Notes under the pieces: generated by a model
Database searches by the model: none
What the model was told of the DNA's origin: nothing
What the model saw: only the letters and a program-made list of their open reading frames with translations
Position numbers and translations under genes: made by a program
From: a virus
Lineage: Duplodnaviria; Heunggongvirae; Uroviricota; Caudoviricetes
DNA: 46,256 nucleotides
IMG/VR virus record: IMGVR_UViG_2579779052_000002
Reading direction: 5' to 3' (one strand)
Part shown: one piece after another, positions 30,726-46,256 of the stretch
Layout of the letters: every line of letters begins with the position of its first letter
Position numbering within the stretch: the stretch's first letter is position 1

Positions 30726-31045
30726 TCGTTCCTCTCCTTCACCCTGCGATCAAATATTGCAATAACCTTGTCGCGTGCTTTCTCTGCGCCCATAAAACCG
30801 ATTGAGGCACCAAAAAACGTCACTGCATCCTCAGGGATCCCGAAGAAGCGCAGCGACCCGGCCACGGCCATGGCAAGAACGCCGCACGCCAGCGATCCCG
30901 TTACGGTCTGAACCAGTGTTCGTCCGTCATAAAGACTCATCAGCGCGGAAATGCTGACAGCCGCGCCTACTGCATACACCGTTGGCAGGTGGTCAAAGAG
31001 CCACGCAATAACCTGCTCTGTGATCCCTGTTTGAATGGTGCTCAC
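30722..31045 (-). CDS. holin (P2 Y-like position)
   Basis: GTG start with GGGGGGAG RBS directly after X stop; 107 aa with hydrophobic segments. Confidence 0.6.
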   Translation of the reverse strand: MSTIQTGITEQVIAWLFDHLPTVYAVGAAVSISALMSLYDGRTLVQTVTGSLACGVLAMAVAGSLRFFGIPEDAVTFFGASIGFMGAEKARDKVIAIFDRRVKERNE

Positions 31046-31047
31046 TG

Positions 31048-31248
31048 CTACTCCCCCCACAACTGAATCATTTCTCGTTTCTTCTTCTCCGGCTCCGGCA
31101 TCTCCACTTCCTGCCCGGCGTCCAGAAATACCTGCTGACAGAGTCCGGGGTTGGCATCCAGCACCTTTTCGGTGACGCCCCGTGTCGTGCCGTAGTACCG
31201 GAAACAGAGCGAATCCACGGTGTCGCCTTCCAGTGCCTTCACTTTCAT
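31048..31248 (-). CDS. X: tail protein X (P2 gpX-like)
   Basis: MKVKALEGDTVDSLCFRYYGTTRGVTEKVLDANPGL... matches P2 gpX (MKTFALQGDTLDAICVRYYGRTEGVVETVLAANPGL...) as recalled. Confidence 0.8.
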   Translation of the reverse strand: MKVKALEGDTVDSLCFRYYGTTRGVTEKVLDANPGLCQQVFLDAGQEVEMPEPEKKKREMIQLWGE

Positions 31249-31742
31249 CAGCACAGCTCCGCAAACATTCGCGGTCGTCCCAGAATGTCAGAGATGGCCC
31301 AGCTCACATCGCGCCACAAATCCGATGTCTGTATATCCAGTGCGTCCGCCCGGCGGTCGCCCTTGTCCGTTGTGTCCGCATCGCGGTAACGCTCCAGAAT
31401 CAGGGCGCGTGTGGCGGTATAAACAGCATTGCGCCAGTGCCAGAGATTGACGCTTTCTCCGTTAATTACAGGGGCCGGAACATCGGCCAGCGTCTGATAG
31501 CCAGCCGCCTGTTGTTCCTGCTGCCATGCTTCCAGCTCGCGGGTAACGTGTGCTATGGCCCCGGTGGCGGTATGCAGCAGGCGGGAGGTGGTCACGCGGC
31601 CCGGCAGTCGTACCGCCAGACGCAGCTCACGCAGCACAATATCCGGCCAGAATGCACCCGCTGAAATGCGAGTGTCGCCATCATCGGTATCGGTGATGTC
31701 GTCCTCTGCGGGGCCGGGGTTAGTTCTGGCAACCATACTCAT
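31248..31742 (-). CDS. L: head completion / stabilisation protein (P2 gpL-like)
   Basis: Start chosen at ATG 31742 with AGGAG RBS; similarity to P2 gpL as recalled (EQFWPDV.../AVSEILG). Confidence 0.8.
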   Translation of the reverse strand: MSMVARTNPGPAEDDITDTDDGDTRISAGAFWPDIVLRELRLAVRLPGRVTTSRLLHTATGAIAHVTRELEAWQQEQQAAGYQTLADVPAPVINGESVNLWHWRNAVYTATRALILERYRDADTTDKGDRRADALDIQTSDLWRDVSWAISDILGRPRMFAELC

Positions 31743-31843
31743 GGGGTTCACTCCTGAAAAAATCGGGCGGTGGGTGCGCGGTGTAAACGGTCACGGAGTC
31801 AAACCGGAACACCGCGCACGCCGCCCGCTGACGGGGTCAGTCG

Positions 31844-32644
31844 TTAACCGCGCTTTGCCTTCTGCGTCGCGGTGGTTTTTCGTGTTGCAGGCTTCCGCGT
31901 TGTCTTTTTATTTTTGCTGCTTTCGTCCTGCGCCTGCTGTGCGCTGGCGTCTTCTGGTTCGGCTGCGGAATCGGCTTTTTTCAGGGCGCGGGAAAGGGTT
32001 GCAATCTCGCGTTTCACACCTGCGTTCGGGTTCAGGTGCATCGCTTCGCGCAGCAGCTTCAGTGAAGAGGCCATGTTGTCTGCATCGGTCAGGCCACGAC
32101 GGGCAAAGGCACACGCCTTGCATAATTTGGCGCGCACTTCGTCCGGAATGTCCTGGTTGGCGACAATTTCCCAAAGTGTGTCCAGTGGTTCGATAAAGGC
32201 GGATAAATCCGCGTCGGCATCCGTCCCAGCCTGCGTCAGTACCGGGTTGCAGATTTCTTCGGTCAGTACCGTGGCAGCAGTACGGCCAAAGTTATCCGGC
32301 ATGATGAGGTTGTGACGGACCACATATGCACCAATACGCAGCGCCAGCGGAAGATCGCCGCAGTCAATCGCCCACACCATCAGCGTGGCAATTACTTCGT
32401 CCTGTTGCCCGCCGTCAGCCTCCAGCGTTCCCTCAATCCAGCCGGAAAAGTCCGGCAACAACTCTTTTTTGATGGCGGCTTTCGCGCTTCTGGCCTGTAT
32501 GGCCTTTAGCCTGGCCTGTGCCAGACGCAGACGATACAGCACTTCTTCATGCGCGGTACACGCGGCGTGGTCCACACCTTCATTCGCCCGGCCTGCGCGC
32601 TGTGCCATCACGTTCTGCCAGTGTTGTTGTGCAGGAGTAATCAT
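31844..32644 (-). CDS. M: terminase endonuclease (small) subunit, P2 gpM-like
   Basis: 266 aa with GGAGAG RBS; position between N and L; basic C-terminal tail. Confidence 0.8.
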   Translation of the reverse strand: MITPAQQHWQNVMAQRAGRANEGVDHAACTAHEEVLYRLRLAQARLKAIQARSAKAAIKKELLPDFSGWIEGTLEADGGQQDEVIATLMVWAIDCGDLPLALRIGAYVVRHNLIMPDNFGRTAATVLTEEICNPVLTQAGTDADADLSAFIEPLDTLWEIVANQDIPDEVRAKLCKACAFARRGLTDADNMASSLKLLREAMHLNPNAGVKREIATLSRALKKADSAAEPEDASAQQAQDESSKNKKTTRKPATRKTTATQKAKRG

Positions 32645-32689
32645 TTTTTCTCTCCGTTACAGGCGGGCATGATGCCCGCCGTGAGTTGA

Positions 32690-33742
32690 TTAGCTGTCGG
32701 CGAACTTCAGGCCAGTGACCATCGCGCACTTGCCATAGTCTTCAACGACATAAGCGTCATTGATGGACTGGTAGGTGGCGATGCGGTTGTATTCCGGCTC
32801 GTCTTTCATCAGACGACGCATTGAACCTTTCTGCCAGTAAATCGACAGGTTGTTGAACGAGGTGATAAGCATCGTTGCATCCGGGAAGAACGGCGCAAGG
32901 AACACGCCCAGCCCGCCAATGGTGCGCGATGACAGGATGAGCTGCCCGGCAAGTAATTCCGCATTGGGATTCTGGCCGCTGATGCTGTTCAGCACGGGCA
33001 GACGCAGCGAGTTAAACAGGTTGCGCCCCATAATCACCACGAGGTCGTCAGCTTCCTTGTGCCATTCATCCAGCAGGGATGAGCGCGCATCCTGTACCAG
33101 AGCATCGGCATTCGCATACTTACCCGCGTGCGCCACAGTGTTGTCCATGTTGCGGGAGGTCAGCGTCACGTCATTCATTACGCGCTCGCTGGCATCGGTT
33201 CTGATGTGCTCCAGCCAGCCCACGTTAACGTCCTGAAGCAGCTTGTTGGTGTGAAAATCAGACTCGTAGGCGTGGGATGTGCCGTTAAAGCCAATCATGA
33301 TGCGATCAAGCGCTACCTGCCGGGCGATCTGTGTACTGATACGGGACTGAAAATCGCTGTGGGCCGCCCAGGTATCAAGCTGTGGGTACGAAATAAAGGT
33401 ATCGTAGTTCACCTGTTCGCACTGGTACTGACGAGACTTCATATCGATCACGTTATTCGGGTTACGGCGTTTGATGCCGTCATAACTGCTATTCGTGCGC
33501 GCAATTGGCCCGGTGGTGTCCAGGAGGATTTTTTCGCCTTTCTGGTCGGTCACGCCGATCACGTTAATTCTTTTCGTAAATTCGGTACTTTCCTTTGAGG
33601 CGTTTTCAAAACGCTGCTGCACCGCGGGTTCCACGGTAAATCGCGATACCAGTGCAGATACCGGGATATTGTTAAGCGACGCCTGCTGCGCCATATAGCA
33701 CCCCAGCTTGTTGCGGGTAATATCTGACATCACCAGATTCAT
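32690..33742 (-). CDS. N: major capsid protein, P2 gpN-like
   Basis: 350 aa; KFTVEP, INVIGVTDQKGEK, DLVVIMGRNLF segments align with P2 gpN as recalled; start could instead be ATG 33730. Confidence 0.85.
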   Translation of the reverse strand: MNLVMSDITRNKLGCYMAQQASLNNIPVSALVSRFTVEPAVQQRFENASKESTEFTKRINVIGVTDQKGEKILLDTTGPIARTNSSYDGIKRRNPNNVIDMKSRQYQCEQVNYDTFISYPQLDTWAAHSDFQSRISTQIARQVALDRIMIGFNGTSHAYESDFHTNKLLQDVNVGWLEHIRTDASERVMNDVTLTSRNMDNTVAHAGKYANADALVQDARSSLLDEWHKEADDLVVIMGRNLFNSLRLPVLNSISGQNPNAELLAGQLILSSRTIGGLGVFLAPFFPDATMLITSFNNLSIYWQKGSMRRLMKDEPEYNRIATYQSINDAYVVEDYGKCAMVTGLKFADS

Positions 33743-33765
33743 AAAAAATTTGCTCCTTTGTCTTA

Positions 33766-34602
33766 TCAGAAGTCAGCCAGCTGGTCGGAGGCTGCGCCCG
33801 TTGCGGTGAAGCGGTTCTGCGGATCGCCGTCCTGCGTGCGCAGTTTTTCCTTCAGTGCTGTCAGCTCTGTGGTCAGTGACGTGATTTTCTGGCGGTCCTG
33901 CTGATGGCGGGTTTCCAGCACATTAAAACGGTCGATAATGTCGGCCTGTGATGTTGCAACGCCTTCCACCGCTTCCTGAATACGGGAGAAACTGGCGTCA
34001 TCCGCTTTGCGGCCACGACCAATAATCCCCATTACGCGGTTAAACCACTGGGTGCCTTCTTCCTGGCGTTGTTCTGCCATTTCGATGATTTCAGACTCGA
34101 TGGCTTCGGAGATAAGCGGTGCTTCACCCTGGATACTGTTGAACGTCATCACCGCCTGACGCTGCTGTGCCGTGAATTTCAGGCGCTCAGTGCCCAGGCT
34201 TGCCGGGGTGTCGGTCATCGCCAGCCCGACCAGATAGGCACGCCCGTTAACGGAGAACTGCGGGTGCAGTTCGATACTGGAATAGATTTTCTTGCCGTCA
34301 GCGACAAGCTGCTTCATGCGCTCGGTCGGTTCGATTTCTGCATACAGCGCAGTACGTCCGGCCAGCGGGCCTTCCGTAATATCTTCCGTACTCAGCGCGG
34401 TGACATCGCCCATTGCGGAAAATTCGCTTGACGGGCATGGCGAGAGATAGTGCTCAACGTTCACGCGGGCAGCGTAAACATCCGGGTTGAAGTTCTCGGC
34501 GGCTTCACGCAGATGCACCGGACTGATTTCACGGCCATCAACAGTTGATCCGGAGACAGCCACGCGAAACTTTTTGCGGGATGTCTTTTTTTCATTAGCC
34601 AT
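33766..34602 (-). CDS. O: capsid scaffolding protein, P2 gpO-like
   Basis: Start chosen at ATG 34602 (MANEKKTSRKKFRVAVSGSTVDGREIS...), aligning with P2 gpO N-terminus as recalled. Confidence 0.85.
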   Translation of the reverse strand: MANEKKTSRKKFRVAVSGSTVDGREISPVHLREAAENFNPDVYAARVNVEHYLSPCPSSEFSAMGDVTALSTEDITEGPLAGRTALYAEIEPTERMKQLVADGKKIYSSIELHPQFSVNGRAYLVGLAMTDTPASLGTERLKFTAQQRQAVMTFNSIQGEAPLISEAIESEIIEMAEQRQEEGTQWFNRVMGIIGRGRKADDASFSRIQEAVEGVATSQADIIDRFNVLETRHQQDRQKITSLTTELTALKEKLRTQDGDPQNRFTATGAASDQLADF

Positions 34603-34756
34603 AGTTTTTGCCCCTCTGACTGGTTCTTCAGTCATGATGGCAAAGCGTAACAGGCTGATACAAAGGGATTTTGTTGTAAGAAAACGGCCAGAACAGGGGG
34701 TTAAGGAGAACAGTTTCGCGCGCGGGTAATCTTCCTGTAATTACTCAGGGGGAGCA

Positions 34757-36508
34757 ATGATTCAGGACGCTTTTGTGCGCCAGCGTGCGCGGCAACTTTA
34801 CTGGCAGGGTTATCCGCCCGCAGAAATATCACGTCTGATGGGAATAAACCCGAACACGATTTATGCGTGGAAAAAACGCGACCAGTGGGATGAAACGCCA
34901 CCCGTGCAGCGTGTCACGCAGTCCATCGATGCGCGCCTCATCCAGCTTACTGAAAAACAGAATAAAACAGGCGGTGACTTTAAGGAAATAGACCTGCTGA
35001 CCCGGCAGCTTAAAAAACTGCATGATGGCCAGCCGGATGCGACGGTCACAGGAAAGAAAGGCCGGGCGAAAAAACTCAAAAATCATTTCACGCCGGAACA
35101 GATTGCCGCACTGCGGGAAAAAATCATCAGCAGGCTGGAGTGGCATCAGCGGGGCTGGTTTGACTCCCTGACCCTTTGCAGGGAAGCCGGGATACGTAAC
35201 AGGATGATCCTGAAATCCCGACAGATTGGGGCGACCTGGTATTTTGCACAGGAAGCTCTGCTGATGGCGCTGCGTGACGATGTGGCGCAACCTTACCAGC
35301 GTAACCAGATTTTTTTGTCTGCGTCGCGTCGTCAGGCGTTCCAGTTTAAAAGCATTATTCAGAAGGCCGCGGCTGAAGTTGATGTGGAGCTGAAAGGGGG
35401 CGATAAAATCATCCTCTCCAACGGCGCAGAGCTGCATTTTCTCGGCACTTCTGCTGCGTCGGCACAGTCCTATACGGGCAATTTTTATTTTGATGAATTT
35501 TTCTGGGTCAGTCGCTTTGCTGAACTGCGCAAGGTGGCTGGCGCTATGGCAACCCTCAGCGGACTGCGGCGCACCTACTTCTCCACGCCATCCACCGAAA
35601 CGCACGAGGCATACGCCTACTGGAACGGCGACCGCTGGAACGAGAAAAAGGCCACGCATAAACGCCAGCGTTTTTCTGTGGACTGGAAAACTCTGCATAA
35701 CGGGCTTATCTGCCCTGACCGGACGTGGCGGCAAATTGTCACGCTGGAAGATGTGGTCAATCACGGCTGGAAACACACCGATATCGACGAAATTCGTGAT
35801 GAAAACACCGAAGACGAGTTCCTCAATCTCTATATGTGTGAGTTTGTCCGCGAAGGGGAATCGGCATTTAACCTGAATATCCTGATTGGCTGCGGTGTTG
35901 ACGGATACGACGACTGGAAAGACTGGAAACCTTTTGCTCCCCGCCCGATGGGGAATCGTCCGGTATGGATTGGGTATGACGCAAACGGCAGTAGTGGCAA
36001 CGGCGACAGCGGCGCTGTGTCCGTGGTGGTTCCTCCGGCTGTTCTTGGTGGCCGTTTTCGAACGGTGGAGACGCGACGCGTTCAGGGGCTGGAGTTTGAA
36101 GAACAGGCCAGAGTCATTGAAGAGTTCACGTATCGCTACAACGTGGAACACATCGGCATTGATGTGACGGGCGGGAACGGGGAGGCTGTTTATCAGATAG
36201 TGAAACGGTTTTTCCCTGCTGCTATTCCGTACACCTTCACGCTGTCATCAAAACGGTCGCTGGTACTGAAAATGCTGCAAATAATGCGTGCCGGGCGGTG
36301 GGAATACGATCGCGCCGAACGCGAGCTGGTCGCGGCCTTTAACGCCGTGCGTAAGGTGAAAACACCGGGCGGCTTTATCACTTACGAAACGGACCGCGCG
36401 AGGGGGATCAGCCACGGCGACCTTGCGTGGGCAACCATGCTTGCTGTCATTAACGAACCGATTGGCGGCGAAGGAGAAAACGAGCGTTTCACGGTTATGG
36501 AGTTCTGA
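34757..36508 (+). CDS. P: terminase ATPase (large) subunit, P2 gpP-like
   Basis: 583 aa with GGGGGAG RBS; divergent from O as in P2; ATPase-like region around KSRQIGATWYFA. Confidence 0.9.
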   Translation: MIQDAFVRQRARQLYWQGYPPAEISRLMGINPNTIYAWKKRDQWDETPPVQRVTQSIDARLIQLTEKQNKTGGDFKEIDLLTRQLKKLHDGQPDATVTGKKGRAKKLKNHFTPEQIAALREKIISRLEWHQRGWFDSLTLCREAGIRNRMILKSRQIGATWYFAQEALLMALRDDVAQPYQRNQIFLSASRRQAFQFKSIIQKAAAEVDVELKGGDKIILSNGAELHFLGTSAASAQSYTGNFYFDEFFWVSRFAELRKVAGAMATLSGLRRTYFSTPSTETHEAYAYWNGDRWNEKKATHKRQRFSVDWKTLHNGLICPDRTWRQIVTLEDVVNHGWKHTDIDEIRDENTEDEFLNLYMCEFVREGESAFNLNILIGCGVDGYDDWKDWKPFAPRPMGNRPVWIGYDANGSSGNGDSGAVSVVVPPAVLGGRFRTVETRRVQGLEFEEQARVIEEFTYRYNVEHIGIDVTGGNGEAVYQIVKRFFPAAIPYTFTLSSKRSLVLKMLQIMRAGRWEYDRAERELVAAFNAVRKVKTPGGFITYETDRARGISHGDLAWATMLAVINEPIGGEGENERFTVMEF

Positions 36509-37554
36509 TGAGCAGAAAAAATAAAAAAGTGCGCATGAGTTCACGCATTGATCTCGCTGATGCGCTCAGGAAAGAATCATCGCTCAGTGCATTCACATTT
36601 GATGGTCCTTATCGCCTGACCGGGCATGACCTGCTGGACAATATGTACTGTGCTGATAACGGACGGTGGTATGAAACCCCGGTGGACTGGTACGGTCTGG
36701 CAAGAGCAGCCCGGCAAACGTCCTGGCATCAGTCTGCGCTTTACTTTAAGCGCAATGTATTACTCGGTTGCTACATCCCGCACCCGCTGCTTTCCCGGCA
36801 GGATTTCTCGGCGCTGGCGCTGGACTGGTTTGTGTTCGGTAACGCATTCCTTGAGCTTAGAAGCAATATGCTCGGCGAACCGCTTAAATTACGGCACGCC
36901 CTGGCGAAATACATGCGACGCGGAAGCGATCTTGAATCATGGTGGTATGTGCAGGATGGCAAGGACGCGTTCCAGTTTCGCCCTGGCAAAGTGTGCCACC
37001 TGATGAATCCGGATATTAACCAGGAAATCTACGGCATGCCGGAATATCTTGGCGCATTACTCTCGGCCAGCCTTTCTCATTCGGCGGACATGTTCAGAAA
37101 ACTGTACTACGACAACGGATCCCACGCCGGGTGCATCATCTACATCGGTGCAGCGCAGGTAAACCGCGAAAGCATGGACTCCCTGAAAGAAACGTTACAG
37201 GGCGCGCGTGGTGGTGGTGCGTTTAAAAACGTACTCATCCATGCGCCCAACGGGGGCAAAGAAGGTGTGCAAATTTTGCCGTTCCAGCAGATCACTGCAA
37301 AGGATGAGTTCATGAATGTTAAGGCGGCATCCCGTGATGATGTGCTGGCTGCGCACCGCGTTCCGCCGCAACTGATGGGGGCGATGCCGGGCGAAAAAAG
37401 TGCGTTTGGTGATGTGGAGAAGGCCGCGCGGGTTTACGCAATTAACGAGCTGATGCCCGTCATGGAGGCCATGAAGCACATCAATGACTGGCTTGGCGAA
37501 GAGGTGATCCGCTTTAACCCTTACGCACTGCTAGATACCCAGCCCACATCCTGA
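36508..37554 (+). CDS. Q: portal protein, P2 gpQ-like
   Basis: 348 aa, start overlaps P stop (TGATG); P-Q order as in P2. Confidence 0.9.
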   Translation: MSRKNKKVRMSSRIDLADALRKESSLSAFTFDGPYRLTGHDLLDNMYCADNGRWYETPVDWYGLARAARQTSWHQSALYFKRNVLLGCYIPHPLLSRQDFSALALDWFVFGNAFLELRSNMLGEPLKLRHALAKYMRRGSDLESWWYVQDGKDAFQFRPGKVCHLMNPDINQEIYGMPEYLGALLSASLSHSADMFRKLYYDNGSHAGCIIYIGAAQVNRESMDSLKETLQGARGGGAFKNVLIHAPNGGKEGVQILPFQQITAKDEFMNVKAASRDDVLAAHRVPPQLMGAMPGEKSAFGDVEKAARVYAINELMPVMEAMKHINDWLGEEVIRFNPYALLDTQPTS

Positions 37555-38005
37555 CGCGCTTCGCTTGTCTGCTGCTTCGCCGGGGCATAAAAAATTTATG
37601 CCCCGACTCTCCAGCTCCTGTATCAATCAGATAATTTCACGACGCTTTTCTGCTTATTGTCATCATCGGCGGTCAGACTCTTACGCAATCCCACCGCGTT
37701 GACTGCATGTTCTCGCCGCCTCAGTGCGATTTTGACGGCCTTATCTGCCACCCATCAAATCAAAAGCCCTCACGTCTTTTTCACGCTCAGCGTGAGAAAT
37801 ACAGCCATTCTGTTGTGTCGCTGCGACATCGTTCAGGGGATGCTATTTACCCCCTGAAACGCGGGCTGTTCCCCCGTCACCTGCGCGCAGAAAAAACGCG
37901 TTTTTTTGTGCACGTACGGATCCTTGACGGATCCAGCCACCACGCGGGCCGGAAGTACAAAAAGTCGTTCAAAAAAATTGTGCAAACTTGTGCACTATCG
38001 TGCAA

Positions 38006-38031
38006 ACAAAAAAAGCGCCTTATCGGCGCTT
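38006..38031 (-). terminator. intrinsic terminator after the 38040-38309 gene
   Basis: Minus strand AAGCGCC-GATAA-GGCGCTT followed by TTTTTTTGTTTG. Confidence 0.6.
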
Positions 38032-38039
38032 CAAAAGTA

Positions 38040-38309
38040 TCAATTGTTGCTGTTTATTAATCGCCAACCACGAACATATGCTTCATAGGCATCTCTGTGC
38101 CTTACAGTTCCAGCCTGGCTAAACGGAATGTTAGCTAAAACTAAATCATTCTGAGCCATAGCGCGTCCTTCAAGCGCATCTTTTATGCCTAGCTCAAAAG
38201 CACAGGCAGCGCATTTGTGCCGACCTTCTTGTCCTTGATATTCAGGGAGAGACAGAAATGTTGGATTATAACGATGAGGGTTCTTGCAAATACCTGTTTT
38301 AGCCCGCAC
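38040..38309 (-). CDS. hypothetical protein (89 aa), possible Cys-containing small regulator
   Basis: GTG start with GAGG RBS; followed by a strong terminator; no family recognised. Confidence 0.45.
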   Translation of the reverse strand: MRAKTGICKNPHRYNPTFLSLPEYQGQEGRHKCAACAFELGIKDALEGRAMAQNDLVLANIPFSQAGTVRHRDAYEAYVRGWRLINSNN

Positions 38310-38673
38310 TTTATTTACCTCATAGGAAAAATATGCGTGCCTTTACAGAGGTGCGTGTAAGCAATAAAATATACGACGCACATTTTGATTTACTTCGGAA
38401 GGCACGCATATCAGGTTAAGTGAGTCCGACCGAGTTTTACGCCCCAATAGTTGCTGCTATTGGGGCGTTTTGCATGGACAATGCCGCGCAATTATCTTGT
38501 CGCTCACAATGCGAACGATCTTACAAAAAGGCACATTACTGTCAAGATAATTGATCGTTTTAATCGATAGATAATAGACAATCTATTTGTTTAACAGATC
38601 GATTATTGAAGTAAGTGTGCCAAATGGAATGATACTGTCTCTATAAACGTGAGCATTTTTCGCGCAGATGCTT

Positions 38674-38985
38674 TTACTCAGGAAATAACGCCCGGATATT
38701 CCCAGCCATCTGGCTGGTTATCTTAGCCACTGGTGCAGACTGTGCTTCAAACTTTTTTGAGCTGATTTGTGTCACAGGTAACATCTCATCATCAGCCCAT
38801 GCGGCCAGTCGGTAAGCCTCTGCCGGATTCGTCTTCAGAAGTGCCAGCCCGGCCAGAAAAGCCACGCGTTGGCCGCTTTTGCGGGCTTCTGGTGTAAGGC
38901 TGTCCAGCCAGGCGCATGCTTCTCCTTCGTTCTTGACGGCGGCGGGCTTCAGATAGAAACTTATCCGTCTGGTTGGTGTCGTCAT
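38674..38985 (-). CDS. parR: ParR/StbB-like centromere-binding protein
   Basis: Start chosen at ATG 38985 (MTTPTRRISFYLKPAA...KSGQRVAFLAGLALL), resembling plasmid R1 ParR N-terminal RHH region as recalled; directly downstream of parM. Confidence 0.6.
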   Translation of the reverse strand: MTTPTRRISFYLKPAAVKNEGEACAWLDSLTPEARKSGQRVAFLAGLALLKTNPAEAYRLAAWADDEMLPVTQISSKKFEAQSAPVAKITSQMAGNIRALFPE

Positions 38986-38989
38986 TGGT

Positions 38990-39949
38990 TTACTCCTTGT
39001 CCATTGCGTACAGCCCATTAACCAGAGCAAACTGTGGCACCCCGTCCGCGATGAAAGTCGCATTAACTCCGCAGGCTTCGCGGATAGCGGGTGCCACAAT
39101 CTCCGCCCCGCCACCGACAACCATCACCCGCCCGTAACCCGAAAAAACCGCCAGCGCGCGGATCACGCGTTGTTTCAGTGTTTCTTCCTTTTCACGAATA
39201 ACCGCCATCAGGCTGGCGTAATGCGCGTCATTGTGGATGTGCTGGCGCAGCCAGGCTTCATTATGGCGATGTTCGATAATGGTATTGGCGATGTGGTGAC
39301 TGGTGCGCATACCGTTAGTGGCCATCACCGACAGTACGGCATCGGCCATAAGAGAAACGCCTACGTGTGGATCGCAAAACACCTGGCTGATACCTGCCAG
39401 TTGCCCCTGAACCTTTGCCACATCCAGCGTGGTTCCGCCCAAATCCACAATCAGCAGGGATTCAAACGGACTCATGTCAGCCAGTGCTTTAAAGCCAGCC
39501 GGAATGGATTCAGGCATAACCCGTACGTTACGGATAGTGAATGCTTCGCCGTTCTGGTACTCCACCGGGCGCATGACGTTCGCTTTTTTGCGGTTGATGT
39601 TGGCCATGTCCGGCTGTGCGTTTGTGTCGAAATATTCGCTCAGTGGCAGGGTAACAACCACATCCACTTCCTGTGGCGTGATGTCTGATTTGACCAGCGC
39701 GTGATGAATGGCAATGACATTCACATCGCTGTACTGGTATTGCGTGTCGGTCGTCTGGACAAAGCGATCGCTGACCGGATCAAAACCATAGCGCACGCCA
39801 TCAAGCATGTAGTTAGCAGGCTGCGAGCCACCGAACGGCGCAGACCATTCCGACTTGAAGCTGTTCGGGCTGATGGCGTTGCGGCGTTCGCCGTTCTCAG
39901 TCCATGCCAGCTTGATGTTGGTGGAGCCGTCGTCGATGTAAATTTTCAT
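38990..39949 (-). CDS. parM: ParM/StbA-like actin-fold partition ATPase
   Basis: 319 aa; motifs IDDGSTNIK, MPESIPAG, LIVDLGGTTLDV, VMVVGGGAE match actin-like ParM (R1 StbA) as recalled; AAGGAAAA RBS. Confidence 0.8.
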   Translation of the reverse strand: MKIYIDDGSTNIKLAWTENGERRNAISPNSFKSEWSAPFGGSQPANYMLDGVRYGFDPVSDRFVQTTDTQYQYSDVNVIAIHHALVKSDITPQEVDVVVTLPLSEYFDTNAQPDMANINRKKANVMRPVEYQNGEAFTIRNVRVMPESIPAGFKALADMSPFESLLIVDLGGTTLDVAKVQGQLAGISQVFCDPHVGVSLMADAVLSVMATNGMRTSHHIANTIIEHRHNEAWLRQHIHNDAHYASLMAVIREKEETLKQRVIRALAVFSGYGRVMVVGGGAEIVAPAIREACGVNATFIADGVPQFALVNGLYAMDKE

Positions 39950-39977
39950 GTCGGTTTTCCTTATGTTGATTAATTAA

Positions 39978-40096
39978 TCGTTTACGGGATTCTGAAATCC
40001 CGTTTTTGCCTGTTTTGTGCGCGCTTCATATATCGCTGCGCGTTTTTTGCTCATTTACGGGATTCGTGAGTCCCGTTTCTGTCTGTTTTTTGTTTC
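39978..40096. repeat. two ~45-bp direct repeats (73 bp apart), each with an ACGGGA-loop-TCCCGT hairpin followed by a T-rich tract
   Basis: TTTACGGGATTCTGAAATCCCGTTTTTGCCTGTTTTGT and TTTACGGGATTCGTGAGTCCCGTTTCTGTCTGTTTTTTGT; one copy in the A-parM spacer, one in the last codons of A. Confidence 0.8.
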
Positions 40097-42866
40097 CACT
40101 GGTCAGGCCACCCCGCAGCAGGTCTGCTTTGCGGCTGGCGCGTTCAGTGGTTTCACTGATTCTCTGTGCGTGCTCTGCGTCGCGGATGGCGCGCAGCATG
40201 TCAGAAAGCACGGTAACGGGTGTTTTCATGGTGTTCTGGTCCTGCTGAAGTGTGGATGCCAGGCGTGCGGCGGCTTCAGGGTCTGATGCCCCCAGCTGTG
40301 CCAGATAGCTGGCGACCGGGTTATGGCGGATCTCCGTGCTGCTTACGCCATGATTACGGCTCAGACGCTGCCAGAGCTGCGTGATTCGGCTGTCCGGGCG
40401 GGTATCCGGTTTGCGTACAATTTCAAATCCCTGCGGTGCAATGATGCTGCCGTCAACGTACAGACTGCCGCCCCGTAACAGGTGCTGCATCTGTTGTTCA
40501 CCGATATGCAGGCCGAGAGATTCAGCAGACTCCCGCCATTCTTTAGCGAGTAACTCGTGGTTATCAGGCAAAGGCCGCTGCTGTTTGCGGCTCTGTGTCC
40601 AGTTCTGCATTTCATCGCTGCTGTTTTTTGCCTGTTTGTCACGAAGCGAACGCATCAGCGCCCGGCGTTCGTGCCGTTTCAGTGAGCGCATCCATTCATT
40701 TACTTCAACGCCGTCAGGAAGCTGCGGCCACGGTGCTGGCCGTTCTTCCGGCTGTTCTGTCCCGTTGTTGCCTGTTTCCTGTACACGGGGACAGTTATTG
40801 CCACGAGTCCAAGGGGCGGCAGGGCCGCCCTGAAGGTCAAAACCATTTTCGCGGGCGCTGTCTTCCGCTTCCGGTTTACGTCTTACCAGCTTCCAGTTAT
40901 CCGGATGCGTGCACACACGGGAGGATTCCCCGATGAATGGCGACCAGATCCCGTAAATCTGTACACTCTGTTCGCCGTAATCGTTCAGCTCATCTGCGAG
41001 GTCGTAGGCTGTGCGAATCAGGTAGTCCTTGCGCGGAACAAGTACGCCACCCTGTTTTTCAATGTAGGTGGCAAAACATCCGGCATCAGCGGCAGCGAGT
41101 ACCGCATCCATTGCATCATCCTTCAGCCGTTGTGGGCCTTCCGGGTTGCGTGCCATCTGGCTGGCAAGGCGGCGGAGTTCACGCCATACCTGACGGGAGG
41201 GGATGCCAAAGAACTGGAACTGGCGGACCCGGTGAAGGCGTGCCCAGCCGATGGCGCGTTCCACGCTCTCGGCCATTGATTTTCCGGTTTCGTGGTCAAC
41301 GCGTGGCTTGCCCGTTTTCGGGTCGATGCCATCCACGGCGCGGCTGTCCAGGTTCTTTCCGATGTAGGTGGCGATGTAGCTGGTTGGCGTGCCTTTTGAG
41401 CCGTCGACATACTCCACCTTAAAGCGCGGAGTAATATCATTGCCCAGCTCGTGGCGGTCTTCCTGAATGGCAATATCGCGGGTGTGGGACACAATGGTGT
41501 CGATTTCTTCCGGATGAGCAAAGACCATCATATGCCAGTGCACGGTGCCGTCATGGTGAGGCTCCACCGTGCGGATGCCATACCAGCGCAGGCCGTCGCG
41601 GTTCAGTTTCTTGCGGACCGCCGCAAAAAACGTGTTAACCAGGTAATCGCTGGAGTCGCGCATGGTGGCCCCGTTCCATTTGGGATTCGGATGACCGTTC
41701 TCTGTTGTGGCGTGGTATTTTGACGGGCAGGTGACAGTCAGAAACACCGCTCTGTCGCCACGGGCTTCGGCCAGAAGTTCCAGCCCCTTCATGGTGGCCA
41801 TCATTTCTGCCTTACGGTGAATCGGGTTACTTACTCCCGCGTAATACACTGTCTCGAGATCAATCGTGAACCCGTCTTCGTTTTCCAGCATGAAACTTTT
41901 CAGGAAATCGCGTGTTTTCTCGCGCTGTGCGCGAAACTCGCTTAACGCGTCCTGGCTCAGATAGGGTGATGTTTTTCTGGAAACCAGACAGGCGGCGCGG
42001 AGTTGTTCTTCTCTCCACTCGCAACGTAACAGCCACAGTTTGCGTTTCCACCATTCCGCACAGGTCAGGCGAAGGATTGCGCCCGGCAGCAGCTCCGTGT
42101 CCGGTTCATTCCTCCGGTCTTTGTCTGTTGTCAGAGCGTCATAATGTGGAGGCATAGCGTGCAGGTGTAACGCCATGCGGGCCAGCATCTGATACGCCTT
42201 CAGCGTTACATCCATGGTCAGCTCGCCATCGGTCGCGCCAAAGCCATCGCAGAGTTTTTCAAAAGTGCCACTGAACATCGCCGCCGTCATGGTGGCCAGC
42301 GTCTGTATCTGGTGTTTGTTGAGCTGCGGCAGGTAAAGCAAATCGTCCAGGCGTTCGCGTCCGGCAAGGGAGCGATAGCCCGGTGTCAGCCAGCGGCTGT
42401 CGGTGCGGTCCAGACGTTCGAATATTTTGCGCAGGGTTCCGCGCGCGTAGCGTTCAGCCTGCCAGCTCTTTTTGCCTTTCTGACGATCGGCTTCCTGCTT
42501 CTTGCGCAGAAAAGAGAGGTGGCGGCTCAGAGGTTCACGCAGATAAACGGGAAGCACCTTCAGTGTGGCAAAAGCACGGGCCACCGGGTCTTGTTCTGTT
42601 GCCTGACGCTTGCTGATGATGCTTTGTGCCAGCTTTTCACGCTGTCCGGCTTCCTCAAGGGATGCCATGAGTTTTTTACCCACGGTGGATTGTGCGAAAA
42701 AGGCTTCTTCCTTCGCTTCCTGTTCTTCCTGTGCCCTTTTGTTTGCCTCAAGGTAGTAACGGATGGCGCGTTGCAGGTCGGTTTCAGTTTCCTGCCTGCG
42801 CTCCGTAAATCTGGCCGGATCAATGGCTGGCCGTGGTTCATTCCAGCTCCATGCAAACGCACTCAT
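40026..42866 (-). CDS. A: replication initiation endonuclease (P2 gpA-like, HUH rolling-circle family)
   Basis: HUH motif HWHMMVF and tyrosine motif SYIATYIGK; start set at ATG 42866, ATGA-coupled to the upstream gene (ORF track starts 27 nt earlier). Confidence 0.8.
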   Translation of the reverse strand: MSAFAWSWNEPRPAIDPARFTERRQETETDLQRAIRYYLEANKRAQEEQEAKEEAFFAQSTVGKKLMASLEEAGQREKLAQSIISKRQATEQDPVARAFATLKVLPVYLREPLSRHLSFLRKKQEADRQKGKKSWQAERYARGTLRKIFERLDRTDSRWLTPGYRSLAGRERLDDLLYLPQLNKHQIQTLATMTAAMFSGTFEKLCDGFGATDGELTMDVTLKAYQMLARMALHLHAMPPHYDALTTDKDRRNEPDTELLPGAILRLTCAEWWKRKLWLLRCEWREEQLRAACLVSRKTSPYLSQDALSEFRAQREKTRDFLKSFMLENEDGFTIDLETVYYAGVSNPIHRKAEMMATMKGLELLAEARGDRAVFLTVTCPSKYHATTENGHPNPKWNGATMRDSSDYLVNTFFAAVRKKLNRDGLRWYGIRTVEPHHDGTVHWHMMVFAHPEEIDTIVSHTRDIAIQEDRHELGNDITPRFKVEYVDGSKGTPTSYIATYIGKNLDSRAVDGIDPKTGKPRVDHETGKSMAESVERAIGWARLHRVRQFQFFGIPSRQVWRELRRLASQMARNPEGPQRLKDDAMDAVLAAADAGCFATYIEKQGGVLVPRKDYLIRTAYDLADELNDYGEQSVQIYGIWSPFIGESSRVCTHPDNWKLVRRKPEAEDSARENGFDLQGGPAAPWTRGNNCPRVQETGNNGTEQPEERPAPWPQLPDGVEVNEWMRSLKRHERRALMRSLRDKQAKNSSDEMQNWTQSRKQQRPLPDNHELLAKEWRESAESLGLHIGEQQMQHLLRGGSLYVDGSIIAPQGFEIVRKPDTRPDSRITQLWQRLSRNHGVSSTEIRHNPVASYLAQLGASDPEAAARLASTLQQDQNTMKTPVTVLSDMLRAIRDAEHAQRISETTERASRKADLLRGGLTSGNKKQTETGLTNPVNEQKTRSDI

Positions 42867-43252
42867 GGCTGGTATCCCGTCACGCGCTGCCACTCCTGTG
42901 AGAAGAGGGCGGAAAGGCGGTTAAATTCAGCGGAGTATTCACTCAGCGAGGCACACCCGCCAGCAGTGCGATGCGCCAGCATTGCCGCAAATATGGAGGC
43001 CGGGGAGTCGTAATACGCCAGCAGTGATTCGCCGTGTGGTGTCAGGCAGTGCAACGCCAGCCCGTGTGGTGTGAAGTCCACGCGGTAGCAGTCGTCTACT
43101 GTGAAATAAAGGGTGTCTGCATTCTCCGGTTTTGTGGTGCGTGCTCTGTTGTCACGACCACGGATGTAGAGATCAAATAATCCCTGAAGAACGGGAGCCA
43201 GACGGGTGTCCTGTGTGCGCACCCATCTTGTGAAGTCATGAGCGTCAATCAT
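42863..43252 (-). CDS. hypothetical protein (129 aa), early operon
   Basis: ATG ORF translationally coupled to A. Confidence 0.55.
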   Translation of the reverse strand: MIDAHDFTRWVRTQDTRLAPVLQGLFDLYIRGRDNRARTTKPENADTLYFTVDDCYRVDFTPHGLALHCLTPHGESLLAYYDSPASIFAAMLAHRTAGGCASLSEYSAEFNRLSALFSQEWQRVTGYQP

Positions 43253-43360
43253 GCTGCAATTCTCTTTACTACAGATGTGCGAAGGCTTCCTGCCAAAAAA
43301 CTCAGAAGCGGTCGGTTACAGGAATTGACGTTCTACGAGTAGTTATTGCTGGCTTGAGGT

Positions 43361-43579
43361 TCATTTCTGTTTAATTCCGTGCATGCTGTAGAAGAAATCA
43401 AAAGTGTTATCTATGCGTATCATGAGCTCACGCTGCATCGCTTCTGGTGTTTCTGGTTCGCCTGGTGAGCCAACTCCCGCGAAGAAATCACCGATCTCGC
43501 TTTGAATAAGTGCCTTTAGCGTTGCTGAGGAACTCAGGTGTGTTCGGTGATGTCTGCGAGTGATTCTTCTCCTACTCAT
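43361..43579 (-). CDS. hypothetical protein (72 aa)
   Basis: ATG ORF, ATGA-coupled to the upstream gene. Confidence 0.45.
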   Translation of the reverse strand: MSRRRITRRHHRTHLSSSATLKALIQSEIGDFFAGVGSPGEPETPEAMQRELMIRIDNTFDFFYSMHGIKQK

Positions 43580-43779
43580 TTGCGTGGATCCTGTACCTGT
43601 CGGATAAGATTCACCCGCGCCACATTAGTGGCGCAAAAGTAAGTGCCGTCAGTGAGATAGATGTGGTGTGCATCCTTTTCTGAGCGGTGTTTGTCGATTG
43701 TGGTAATCAGACGTTCGTCGACTTCGTATTCACGTCCTCTGGAGGTGAAACGAACGACAGGAAAATGCTTAATTGCCAT
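43576..43779 (-). CDS. hypothetical protein (67 aa)
   Basis: Start chosen at ATG 43779 with AAGGAGG RBS (ORF track starts at an upstream GTG). Confidence 0.55.
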   Translation of the reverse strand: MAIKHFPVVRFTSRGREYEVDERLITTIDKHRSEKDAHHIYLTDGTYFCATNVARVNLIRQVQDPRK

Positions 43780-43865
43780 TACGCCTCCTTGGTGTGTGTG
43801 AATACCTCTGCGAATGCAGATTGTGTTCACATTTTTTTATTTAAGCTGGGGTTTTATTTATGCGG

Positions 43866-43979
43866 TTATTCGCCAGTGAAAAAGCGTTCAATCTTTTTTA
43901 CTGAATTAATAATTCGCATAATACCAATTGCACAAACCACCGAAATAATAAGAACAATCCAGGATATAAATATACTCAT
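43866..43979 (-). CDS. small hydrophobic peptide (37 aa, single predicted TM)
   Basis: Below ORF-track cutoff; MSIFISWIVLIISVVCAIGIMRIINSVKKIERFFTGE, ATGA-coupled to the upstream gene. Confidence 0.35.
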   Translation of the reverse strand: MSIFISWIVLIISVVCAIGIMRIINSVKKIERFFTGE

Positions 43980-44218
43980 GCGATATTTCCCAGTTTGTAC
44001 GGCTCAATATGCTCCCCGCATTCTGCGGCGCAGATAAGCTCAGAAAGTTCATTAAGCGCATCCAGATCGTCAGCGTAAAAAGCTACGTCATACAGACTCC
44101 GGATAGCCCTGGTCAATGAGTCACGGGCTGCACGTTCTGAATGAGCGCCGGATGCGCTTAAACGAAAATAAAAACGCTCAAGTGCTTTGTTGATGAGAGT
44201 TTTATATTCTTTATCCAT
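43976..44218 (-). CDS. hypothetical protein (80 aa)
   Basis: ATG with AAGGGTG RBS. Confidence 0.5.
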   Translation of the reverse strand: MDKEYKTLINKALERFYFRLSASGAHSERAARDSLTRAIRSLYDVAFYADDLDALNELSELICAAECGEHIEPYKLGNIA

Positions 44219-44229
44219 CGCAACACCCT

Positions 44230-44508
44230 TTAATCTGCTTTCTGAATTTCAGCTTCTGAATCCATGCAGATAATCTCGATATAGGGTTCATCGCCATTAA
44301 CCTGACGAGATTTTTCGGCTTCGCTAATTATTTCGCGAATGATCTGGTACGGAAGCTCTACAGTCAGGCGTGTACCGTTCAGATAAACGTAGGTAGCTGC
44401 GTTTTTTTCAGATGGAACTACTCCGTCAATAGCTGATGCGCGTAATAACAGTTCACCGCGAAAATCAATAAAGCGGATAAATACACCTTGTGCATGGTCT
44501 TTAGTCAT
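44230..44508 (-). CDS. hypothetical protein (92 aa)
   Basis: ATG with AGGTG RBS. Confidence 0.5.
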   Translation of the reverse strand: MTKDHAQGVFIRFIDFRGELLLRASAIDGVVPSEKNAATYVYLNGTRLTVELPYQIIREIISEAEKSRQVNGDEPYIEIICMDSEAEIQKAD

Positions 44509-44518
44509 AAAGCACCTG

Positions 44519-44869
44519 TTATAAAGCAGCCTGTTTAATAAAACTTTGCCCGCGAAGCAGACGATCGACTGTGCGTAGTGCTTCGTACAATGTGAAATCC
44601 TGCCCGAACTGATTATCGCCGCTGCTTAATGCAAAAATGCGGTTTCCGGTAAACGGATTGTGTGGGCATCTGTGAACCACGATTCCAGCTTTCTCAATCA
44701 GCCAGGTGTGTTCGCCGATTTGTTTTACAGCGTGCCCATCTGGTGTTGCGTGCGTCTCGTTCAGGTTATAGCGGCTGTTACTACGTGATGCACTGGTAGC
44801 GACGTGGTGTACATGGCGTTCTACGCCATTACGAAATTTGGAGTATGGATTATTAGTGTTTTTTTTCAT
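44519..44869 (-). CDS. hypothetical protein (116 aa)
   Basis: ATG ORF in early operon; weak RBS. Confidence 0.45.
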   Translation of the reverse strand: MKKNTNNPYSKFRNGVERHVHHVATSASRSNSRYNLNETHATPDGHAVKQIGEHTWLIEKAGIVVHRCPHNPFTGNRIFALSSGDNQFGQDFTLYEALRTVDRLLRGQSFIKQAAL

Positions 44870-44890
44870 GATGATGCTCTGTTCATTGTT

Positions 44891-45094
44891 TTAGCTGTTA
44901 GCCAAAGCGTCTTTTAACATCGCCACAAGGTTTACTTCAGGCTTTTCCATTTTGGCGCGTTTGGGGCGGATAATAATTCGACCGTCAGCCAACATCTTTT
45001 TGCATGTATTAAGAGGGATACCTGTTATCTCTGCATATTTCTGCAGGGATACATAGGGGGCATTCACATTGATATTGATGGTTATACCTGACAT
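44891..45094 (-). CDS. cox: Cox-like HTH excisionase/regulator
   Basis: 67 aa; APYVSLQKYAEITGIPLNTCKKMLADGRI resembles P2 Cox HTH (IPYQEFAKLIGKSTGAVRRMIDKGKL) as recalled. Confidence 0.55.
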   Translation of the reverse strand: MSGITININVNAPYVSLQKYAEITGIPLNTCKKMLADGRIIIRPKRAKMEKPEVNLVAMLKDALANS

Positions 45095-45110
45095 CCCACT
45101 AGCCTCCTGA

Positions 45111-45317
45111 TCAGGAAGATTTGTTTTGTTCTTTCTGGGTTAGCTCTAGGCCGCGAAGGAAGATCATGCGCGCCATGTTAGAGGATGAGCGTTGTTCTTT
45201 AGCTGCCATTTCATCAATGACGGCTCGCTCCTCGAGGGACAGCCGAAGTGCCAGTCTTGGACCTGTGGCGGTGTTACGCGGAATGCGTGATCTGGTATCG
45301 TGAAGAACTTGTTTCAT
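45111..45317 (-). CDS. small ribbon-helix-helix-like regulator, first gene of the early operon
   Basis: 68 aa, RLSLEERAVIDEMAAKEQRSSSNMARMIFLRGLE; no obvious RBS (possibly leaderless); divergent from repressor. Confidence 0.45.
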   Translation of the reverse strand: MKQVLHDTRSRIPRNTATGPRLALRLSLEERAVIDEMAAKEQRSSSNMARMIFLRGLELTQKEQNKSS

Positions 45318-45359
45318 AGTGGTATATTGTGATCATCTAATAGCTCGTGAAATCATTTT

Positions 45360-45377
45360 GGTATCAAAAAAGATACC
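45360..45377. promoter_or_regulatory. candidate operator GGTATC-AAAAAA-GATACC in divergent repressor/early promoter region
   Basis: Perfect 6-bp-arm inverted repeat 15 bp upstream of the repressor ATG; a related half-site GGTATA lies at 45321. Confidence 0.4.
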
Positions 45378-45392
45378 TGTCAAGGTTTTTGT

Positions 45393-45797
45393 ATGAAAAA
45401 TGATATTGGTCAGCGGTTGCGTGAGGAAAGGGAAAGATTGGGACTTAGTCAAGTTGCCATGAGCGACATTGGTGGAGTCAAAAAGCTAACTCAGCTTAGA
45501 TATGAGAAAGGAGATAGCTTTCCTGATGCTGCGTATTTGGCAGCGCTGTCTCGTTTTGGCCTTGATGTTCAGTATGTTGTGTTGGGAATTCACTCACCTG
45601 AAACTTATAACGATGATGAGCAGGAGTTGATTACTCGCTTTCGAGCAGCTTCGTTAGATGTGAAAAACGCGGTGATCGGGGCTTTAAAAGGTGCGATCAG
45701 TGAAAAGGAAACTCAGCCATCAGGACGTGAGTTAAATATTTCTGGTGGTAATAACCGTATCGCTGGTCGTGACTATAACGAAACTAAGGGTAGGTGA
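45393..45797 (+). CDS. XRE-family HTH repressor (immunity repressor candidate)
   Basis: 134 aa; N-terminal HTH (IGQRLREERERLGLSQVAMSDIGGVKKLTQLRYEKGDSFP); divergent from the cox-like operon. Confidence 0.7.
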   Translation: MKNDIGQRLREERERLGLSQVAMSDIGGVKKLTQLRYEKGDSFPDAAYLAALSRFGLDVQYVVLGIHSPETYNDDEQELITRFRAASLDVKNAVIGALKGAISEKETQPSGRELNISGGNNRIAGRDYNETKGR

Positions 45798-45812
45798 TAG
45801 TAGGGAGGTGAC

Positions 45813-45893
45813 ATGGCCGTCAACTCAAACGGTTCAAACAATCGCGTTGCTGGGCGTGATTTTCACGAAAAGAATATTCAGATAGAGCGATAT
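45813..45893 (+). pseudogene. ORF truncated by IS1 insertion
   Basis: ATG 45813 with GGGAGGTG RBS; reads MAVNSNGSNNRVAGRDFHEKNIQIERY then runs into the IS1 left end at 45894. Confidence 0.55.
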
Positions 45894-46256
45894 GGTGATG
45901 CTGCCAACTTACTGATTTAGTGTATGATGGTGTTTTTGAGGTGCTCCAGTGGCTTCTGTTTCTATCAGCTGTCCCTCCTGTTCAGCTACTGACGGGGTGG
46001 TGCGTAACGGCAAAAGCACTGCCGGACATCAGCGCTATCTCTGCTCTCACTGCCGTAAAACATGGCAACTGCAGTTCACTTACACCGCTTCTCAACCCGG
46101 TACGCACCAGAAAATCATTGATATGGCCATGAATGGCGTTGGATGCCGGGCAACCGCCCGCATTATGGGCGTTGGCCTCAACACGATTTTCCGCCATTTA
46201 AAAAACTCAGGCCGCAGTCGGTAACCTCGCGCATACAGCCGGGCAGTGACGTCATC
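45894..46256 (+). mobile_element. IS1 insertion sequence, left end and insA (continues beyond window)
   Basis: GGTGATGCTGCCAACTTACTGATTTAGTGTATGATGGTG matches IS1 left inverted repeat as recalled, followed by insA. Confidence 0.9.
45949..46224 (+). CDS. insA: IS1 transposase InsA
   Basis: 91 aa, [91 protein letters not shown]. Confidence 0.95.

Follow-up and report, generated by a model that had tools for sequence, protein, structure and literature searches.

The stretch of viral DNA analysed here (46,256 nt, called the window throughout; IMG/VR record IMGVR_UViG_2579779052_000002, Caudoviricetes) carries at positions 45,111 to 45,392 a short gene for a protein of the ribbon-helix-helix (RHH) type, followed by the spacer that separates it from an immunity repressor gene on the opposite strand; behind the RHH gene, on the same strand, lies a gene for a Cox-like protein (Table 1). 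This region is the lysis/lysogeny control switch of a defective P2-like (Xuanwuvirus-type) prophage. A sequence-only reading of the window had described it as a compact divergent immunity switch distinct from the C/Cox arrangement of phage P2, and several parts of this description stood. The compact immunity switch was supported, and the spacer between the repressor ATG (45393) and the RHH ATG (45317), the latter being the first start codon following an in-frame TGA, does measure 75 bp (45318-45392). The genes are indeed divergent, but the predicted promoters point towards each other, as in P2, 186 and HP1. Likewise, the repressor and its probable dyad operator differ from those of P2, but the switch is not Cox-free, the gene next to the RHH gene being Cox-like.

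The switch was compared among 24 non-redundant related loci obtained from IMG/VR (L045-L059), from Escherichia coli (L002, L003) and from contigs encoding individual proteins, with the set also spanning Photorhabdus, Serratia, Klebsiella (two), Chitiniphilus, Salmonella (three), Sodalis and Yersinia; a profile search of genome contigs with the RHH alignment gave no confirmed locus. All related loci carry a homologous repressor at the same position, and in every one of them, across genera, the RHH gene is the first after the predicted early lytic promoter (Pe) and stands opposite the repressor gene.

The repressor has an N-terminal helix-turn-helix (HTH) of the XRE or Cro/CI type. It matches PHROG phrog_8 (E 2.5e-14), while its matches to Pfam HTH_31 (23.2 bits, under the 27-bit cutoff) and to NCBIfam RstR and DicA (about 5e-6) are below the respective cutoffs, and its homologues carry precomputed HTH_31 and HTH_3 matches. 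No S24 peptidase domain of the lambda CI or LexA type was matched in it with Pfam or NCBIfam; its C-terminal part consists of a helix followed by an NRIAGRDY tail. The repressors of the related loci form one family with 31-93% identity, in which the HTH helices are the most divergent portion. BLASTP gave no alignment between the repressor and C of the P2-type phage P88, and similarity to HP2 CI was not detectable. Outside the family, its nearest phage relatives are HTH proteins with 33-55% identity from Burkholderia (BcepMu, KS10), Pseudomonas (B3, Ps59, Dobby) and Ralstonia phages.

The ribbon-helix-helix fold proposed for the 68-aa (amino acid) protein is backed by several lines of evidence. 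The protein matches PHROG 3431, 'Arc-like repressor' (E 1e-28), and the profile of its family retrieves from the PDB the structures of HP0222 (5.7e-4), Arc (0.017) and members of the CopG family. Its AlphaFold monomer model (pLDDT 82.8) comprises an extended segment and then helices 28-41 and 45-67, in keeping with the N-terminal beta-strand and two helices expected of the RHH superfamily, and the Foldseek neighbours of this model in the PDB and BFVD are nearly all RHH proteins, with probabilities up to 0.97-1.0 and E values of at least 0.03; the Pfam models RHH_1 and RHH_5 reach an E value of only 0.075, under their cutoffs. A basic N-terminal arm, HxxRSRxPRG, is conserved. The family is small, with 46 clusters from Enterobacterales and one betaproteobacterium. 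Its distant homologues P0016, P0021 and P0026 (120-153 aa) carry tandem RHH modules in one chain, which would form single-chain pseudo-dimers. In the E. coli UCPROB-001 locus (L002:2500-2718), RefSeq omits the RHH gene and calls instead an opposite-strand 45-aa open reading frame (ORF; 2567-2704), whose counterpart in the window lies at 45121-45303; the frame conserved in the family is that of the RHH gene.

The Cox-like protein belongs by homology to the HP1/K139-type Cox family and is, judged on this similarity, a putative excisionase. It shares 45% identity with HP2 Cox (E 3e-18), matches PHROG 575 (E 1e-27) and finds, by tblastn, Cox-annotated genes in K139, Kappa, phiO18P and F108; no similarity to P88 Cox was found.

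The perfect palindrome reported in the spacer is present as an 18-bp dyad, GGTATCAAAAAAGATACC. It is the sole exact match of its pattern in the window, and perfect dyads with arms of at least 6 bp occur in 1.2% of random 20-mers drawn from the window; on these statistics alone the palindrome is suggestive, the support being modest and not decisive, and it is the comparative data that decide. A scan of 44800-45900 returned Pe as the sole sigma-70-like site, with a 10/12 match, and the dyad corresponds to the spacer of this promoter plus the first base of its -10 hexamer. A promoter of 9-11/12 is aimed at the RHH gene in 24/24 loci, its -10 ending 37-38 nt from the RHH ATG (48 nt in Chitiniphilus). 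At least 10 immunity types keep this promoter scaffold; the Pe spacer of every type holds a dyad or near-dyad peculiar to it, and 6/10 types have perfect arms of at least 6 bp, for which the per-type chance is about 0.001-0.015.

The dyads follow the repressors. The repressors of types A, D and E are related to one another (53-80% identity); their recognition helices are KKLTQLR, KKWTQIK and RKQAQLL, and the dyad arms of these types are GGTATC..GATACC, GGTGTG..CACACC and GGTACG..CGTACC, respectively. Type B and Serratia repressors, 71% identical, go with a common dyad GAGATC..GATC(T/C)C, and the type C and Photorhabdus repressors, 50% identical, with a common core AGGAAG-TTTT. Conversely, one RHH type (type 1, 91-100% identity) is paired with dyads A, B and C, and a second (type 2, whose identity to type 1 is about 44%) with D, E and F, which makes the proposed action of the RHH protein on the palindrome unlikely; the covariation of the first lytic protein with the operator that characterizes a shared operator of the lambda type was not found. 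That the dyad changes with the recognition helix and not with the RHH protein argues for its being the operator of the HTH repressor, unshared with the RHH protein, and the palindrome is very probably a repressor operator inside the early lytic promoter. By these sequence comparisons, the RHH and Cox-like genes are a module separate from that of the repressor and dyad, the two having recombined within the spacer, near 45343.

Table 1. Positions of the genes and sequence elements of the switch and its surroundings in the window, with the putative operator dyads of the six main immunity types
Feature	Position	Strand	Description
RHH gene	45111..45317	-	68 aa; first gene of early operon; ATG 45317
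Cox-like gene	44891..45094	-	HP1/K139 type, 67 aa; second gene of early operon
Shine-Dalgarno sequence of Cox-like gene	45108-45103	-	AGGAGG, strong
Immunity repressor gene	45393..45797	+	134 aa; ATG 45393; N-terminal XRE-type HTH
Shine-Dalgarno sequence of repressor gene	45382-45385	+	AAGG, weak
18-bp perfect dyad	45360..45377		GGTATC-A6-GATACC; inferred HTH-repressor operator
Predicted early lytic promoter Pe	45355..45383	-	-35 TTGACA 45383-45378; 17-bp spacer; -10 CAAAAT 45360-45355
Predicted Pe leader	45318..45348	-	31 nt, without Shine-Dalgarno sequence; predicted transcription start site A 45348
Predicted lysogenic promoter Pc, extended -10	45320..45328	+	TGgTATATT; predicted transcription start site ~45335
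GGTATA	45321-45326		Inside Pc extended -10
CAATAT, candidate leftward -10	45324..45329	-	Overlaps Pc -10; transcription start site would be 45317, A of the RHH ATG
Conserved block over Pc core	45319..45339		GTGGT-N5-GTGAT direct repeat (10-bp spacing), then CTA; candidate Cox-like and/or RHH operator
5' remnant of gene after repressor	45813..45893	+	Intact relatives: ~214 aa, Flk_N-like, C-terminal membrane anchor
ParM-like partition gene	38990-39949		Within P2-like remnant
IS1 InsA ORF	45949-46224		Pfam-confirmed
Type A dyad			GGTATC-N6-GATACC
Type B dyad			GAGATC-AATA-GATCTC
Type C dyad			TAGGGAAC-AAAA-CTTCCTA, imperfect
Type D dyad			GGTGTG-N6-CACACC
Type E dyad			GGTACGC-TTTT-GCGTACC
Type F dyad			TTTGCAG-AAAT-CTGCAAA

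Further operator-like sequences were considered. One IMG/VR locus of type A (L021) carries the one-base variant GGTATC-A6-GATATC, possibly an operator mutation or a sequencing error. A clear second dyad is seen in type F (L056) alone; it is near-perfect, ATTGCAGAAAAATGCAAAT, and lies over the repressor start codon, 32 bp away from the first. Type D (L053, L054, L057) has a perfect GGTGTG half-site 31 bp off, containing the GTG start; these may be auxiliary operators for autoregulation. Three other candidates were rejected or set aside. A near-operator at 45005-45022 (2 mismatches) is the same in types A, B and C despite their different repressors and is degraded in two type A loci (L049, L052), and it was assigned to Cox coding sequence; a second operator over the repressor start of the window (TGTATG-N6-GATATT, 45389-45406) agrees at 8/12 arm positions and varies at synonymous sites within type A; and a host-factor site, to which the faintly CRP-like dyad of type D might point, was ruled out by the differences in the dyad between types.

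The other element to which the sequence-only reading had given an operator role, a GGTATA half-site, did not hold up as such: it is GATATA in loci with the same repressor and palindrome (L007, L008, phage 520873), is also found alongside other repressors, and as a half-site is not above chance. A GGTATC within the RHH coding sequence (45294-45299) was discarded as a half-site, because L049 and L052, both of type A, lack it and type B carries it. The GGTATA instead forms part of a motif, TGnTAnnnT, that is situated exactly 3 nt from the RHH ATG and oriented to the repressor gene in 24/24 loci, and Chitiniphilus keeps the position of this motif although the rest of its leader is unalignable. We predict it to be the extended -10 of the lysogenic promoter, Pc. 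A pair of convergent promoters with the repressor operator over the lytic one is, as far as sequence predictions go, conserved in the 24 loci, and the 5' ends predicted for transcripts from Pe and Pc share about 14 nt.

According to the conservation profile, a block around the Pc core (45319-45339) is conserved far past the needs of a -10. Its TTGTGATC part is missing in two Salmonella loci and in Chitiniphilus, all of which lack the 67-aa Cox-like gene, and this hints at a Cox site; an inverted element of more general occurrence, (A/T)TAG-N17-CTAT, around the shared -10 could be an RHH site. No GTGAT-type repeats were seen in the att arm beside int, a search confined to the int-proximal arm and hence uninformative on the Cox assignment.

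As for translation of the RHH gene, the claim that its start has no recognisable ribosome-binding site was confirmed. The 20 nt upstream, GATGATCACAATATACCACT, have no complementarity to the anti-Shine-Dalgarno (anti-SD) sequence, the SD:anti-SD energy being +0.6 kcal/mol, with -10.3 for the Cox-like gene and a median of -2.4 for random 20-mers of the window as controls. Nor does any relative have an SD at a working distance, as the GAGG of types D-F, 16 nt upstream of the ATG, is too distant; the slot of an SD is taken up by the predicted antisense -10 of Pc, which explains its absence. The A at -31, which is the predicted transcription start site (TSS) of Pe, is invariant in 17 Enterobacterales sequences. 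The leader and start region has a minimum free energy (MFE) of -1.74 kcal/mol, compared with -5.85±2.09 kcal/mol for shuffled sequences, of which 196/200 fold at least as well; the leader is thus unstructured and therefore fits SD-independent initiation. An upstream out-of-frame AUG at 45334, opening a 20-codon ORF, was set aside as unconserved in types D-F.

It is also conceivable, and we hold it tentatively, that the RHH mRNA is at least partly leaderless, as the sequence-only reading had suspected. The hexamer of Pc would then be a symmetric bidirectional -10 that yields, independently of Pe, an mRNA beginning at 45317 with the AUG itself, a reading compatible with the model preferred below. 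The leftward hexamer CAATAT, whose end is 6 nt ahead of the ATG, overlaps the plus-strand TATATT such that positions 2 and 6 of the two pair mutually, and the predicted TSSs, 45335 and 45317, lie exactly 18 bp apart, the configuration most often adopted by bidirectional promoters of E. coli (bioRxiv 10.1101/2020.01.31.928960). In the 24 loci the distance from the ATG to the extended -10 is invariably 3 nt, even in Chitiniphilus with its differing upstream distances; ATG is the start codon of all 24 genes, with no SD placed suitably for any of them; and a -35-like TTCACG (4/6; 3-5/6 across the family) is placed 16 bp upstream, TTnACr being found at this spacing in most loci, for an overall match of 7-8/12. 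However, the leftward hexamer is poor, matching at 2-3/6 positions and lacking the first T, the rightward orientation is the one that the invariant TG supports, Pe (10/12) is far stronger and conserved in position, and constitutive leftward transcription would enter cox and the lytic genes in the lysogen, where no terminator was found.

A further step, which we consider doubtful, would make TGnTAnnnT/ATG a true bidirectional promoter, giving rise to the repressor mRNA rightward and to a leaderless RHH mRNA leftward, with the RHH protein as an immunity-type-independent regulator of a Pc core common to at least 10 heteroimmune P2-like phages. If this were true, the RHH protein of an infecting phage could lower repressor synthesis of a heteroimmune resident prophage.

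We favour a model, with a probability of roughly 0.7 as a whole, that combines a repressor operator in Pe, face-to-face Pe and Pc promoters, and an RHH-first early operon. A dimer of the 134-aa XRE-type repressor would bind the dyad between the -35 and -10 of Pe and exclude RNA polymerase, which would account for immunity. When repressor is absent, Pe would fire at about 45348 and produce a transcript with the 31-nt unstructured, SD-less leader, from which the early operon would be expressed in the order RHH, HP1-type Cox homologue, DUF4761, DUF4754 and replication genes. The repressor gene would be transcribed rightward from Pc (TSS about 45335); polymerase at either Pe or Pc would exclude the other promoter, and since Pc transcripts would cross the operator, negative autoregulation is possible. 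In the last and weakest step, the RHH protein and/or Cox may bind the block at 45319-45339, shut off repressor synthesis and perhaps damp Pe, a role that can be likened to that of Cox or Apl in other P2-like phages or of Arc in P22 immI.

Several points weigh against this model. The -35 of Pc is poor, both invariant positions of its hexamer suit a -10 on either strand, and only the TG, which is invariant, and the hexamer's first T speak for the rightward reading. The conserved block could be a Cox-only site or an RNA translation element. The copy of the switch in the window belongs to a defective prophage, which is cut by IS1 at one flank and adjoins a lambdoid prophage at the opposite one, so that lytic control may have been lost. 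Finally, no TSS, footprint or expression data for the RHH-first switch family were found in the literature, in which we likewise found no published description of such a switch or of the RHH gene; a Salmonella BTP5 transcript dataset was set aside, BTP5 being a 186-type prophage of another family.

Other explanations of the spacer fared worse. A minimal divergent switch in which repressor and RHH protein both act on the palindrome and on GGTATA, like lambda CI and Cro, would make use of two sequence elements that are present and of an RHH protein with a DNA-binding fold encoded by the first lytic gene. We nevertheless consider it improbable, given that the RHH type does not covary with the dyad, that neither GGTATA nor the GGTATC at 45294-45299 tracks as it should (the former with the repressor, the latter with type A), and that a Cox homologue is present.

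It is very improbable that the palindrome has its main function as a hairpin of the Pc repressor mRNA, within the 5' untranslated region, affecting its stability or translation. The dyad would be transcribed if Pc starts near 45335, the changes in its arms between types are compensatory, and the hairpin is present in the MFE fold of 45335-45410; but this fold is no more stable than those of shuffled sequences (z = -1.1), the position of the dyad is fixed relative to the -35 and -10 of Pe and not to the repressor start, whose place varies (over the -35 in Photorhabdus, over the -10 in Serratia), the sequence of the dyad changes along with the recognition helix, and HP2 has the same operator-in-spacer design. 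No relevant RNA family was matched in Rfam.

That the RHH gene is unrelated to the switch, for example as the antitoxin of a toxin-antitoxin pair or as a moron, is scarcely credible: the best structural matches do include the RHH antitoxins CopA_SO, TacA and AtaR, and there is a weak NCBIfam RelB match (E 0.044), but neither an adjacent toxin gene nor a toxin-family match was found, the next gene is Cox-like in most loci, and the gene always comes first after Pe and opposite the repressor across genera.

Among known switches, that of HP2 is the closest design. HP1 and HP2 (Peduoviridae, Hpunavirus; CI-pR1/pR2-pL-cox) have a homologous Cox, and the HP2 record shows a palindromic operator, GGGTCAAATGACCC, in the spacer of the lytic promoter pR2 and the lysogenic promoter pL annotated over the start of cox, the first lytic gene, facing the lytic promoters. 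The present switch differs in that the RHH gene precedes cox, that there is one Pe with one clear operator, and that it is far more compact, with its 75-bp spacer and predicted overlapping 5' ends; moreover, HP2 cox has a normal SD, unlike the RHH gene.

P2 and WPhi share the phage backbone and, on the predictions made here, a repressor that blocks Pe and the convergence of Pe and Pc, with transcripts from the two P2 promoters overlapping by about 35 nt (PMC1904263). P2 C binds direct repeats (PMC1904263), whereas the putative operator studied here is a dyad, an inverted repeat, and thus not of the P2 type; in addition, Cox is the first early gene in P2 and the second here, with the RHH gene separating Pe from the Cox-like gene in the window and in the related loci. 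P2-like phages as a group have lytic and lysogenic promoters that face each other, the former overlain by repressor operators and the latter by Apl/Cox operators (PMC7498355). Phage 186 (CI/Apl) likewise has pR and pL face-to-face with repressor operators over the lytic promoter. The direct repeats to which its recombination directionality factor (RDF), Apl, binds have a spacing of about 10-11 bp and are located between the promoters and over them (PMC7498355); the GTGGT-N5-GTGAT repeat over Pc resembles these. By contrast, Apl is encoded by the first gene in 186, the promoters of the present switch are far closer together, and no equivalents of CII or Tum were seen here.

The lambdoid CI-Cro switches (lambda, 434, P22) offer the likeness of an HTH dimer, here inferred, on a 17-18 bp dyad, and of heteroimmune variants differing in recognition helix and operator. 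Lambdoid promoters are placed back-to-back, and CI and Cro share operators (PMC7498355), whereas in the present switch the predicted promoters face each other, the first lytic protein does not track the operator and the repressor has no S24 domain.

The immI region of P22 (Mnt/Arc/Ant) is similar in having a gene for a small Arc-type RHH protein first in an operon, the promoter of which overlaps an opposing one. Pant and Pmnt are both targets of repression by Arc. Unlike immI, the present locus has no antirepressor gene and is a primary, not a secondary, immunity region; its opposing regulator is an HTH protein and not the RHH protein Mnt, and sequence similarity of its RHH protein to Arc is marginal.

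Regarding the genomic surroundings, the window is a composite in which the late region of a lambdoid prophage (1-27000, with a large terminase at 21293-22954, an endolysin at 26318-26851 and long tail genes) is joined to a P2-like prophage remnant (27900-45893). The remnant contains, at 27.9-43 kb, portal, terminase and capsid genes, a ParM-like gene and an A-type replication nickase. From about 45894 to the end of the window (45894-46256), IS1 cuts the Flk_N-like gene that follows the repressor after codon 27; this gene, a small ORF and the integrase all follow the repressor in relatives and were lost from this position of the window through IS1. The repressor C-terminal tail, NISGGNNRIAGRDYNE (45745-45797), recurs at the N terminus of the interrupted gene, MAVNSNGSNNRVAGRDFHE... 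(45813-45893), which in intact relatives (e.g., L002:3214-3858) encodes a Flk_N-like protein of about 214 aa. Both tail motifs occur together in E. coli, Serratia and Klebsiella loci (L062, L063, L071 and L072 were examined) and neither is found in the Photorhabdus locus, which suggests a shared peptide signal or interaction.

The best match among phage records is Escherichia phage 520873 (Xuanwuvirus), with 96% identity across 44414-45897 (query 44400-45900), where these genes are annotated as transcriptional regulator, Arc-like repressor, Cox-like excisionase and repressor, and DUF4761. Its record, NC_049344.1, is labelled 'complete genome' and resembles an excised prophage region and not an isolated phage, with host yecA at one end, a split integrase and IS100 within the tail sheath gene. 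In P88, which belongs to this genus too, the same DUF4761 and DUF4754 genes are preceded by a normal C/Cox pair of the P2 type, and the immunity module has therefore been exchanged. The 701-bp switch region was found in 525/5,426 complete E. coli genomes, many O157:H7 strains among them, and the RHH gene in 1/50,697 deposited phage records (one phage under two accessions).

The switch family constitutes a natural set of parts, with at least 10 repressor types and their own dyads or near-dyads on one constant scaffold, that may be of use for studies of HTH specificity and for orthogonal circuits. The start codon lying 3 nt from an antisense extended -10 provides a testable example of how overlapping signals can force SD-independent or leaderless translation. 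Judging from the conserved gene order, the lytic operon of this switch, which is predicted to be a face-to-face one of the P2-like/HP1-like kind, begins with an unusual additional gene, that of the RHH protein, and the usual rule for P2-like phages, by which the Cox or Apl RDF is the first early gene, is broken here, with Cox second.

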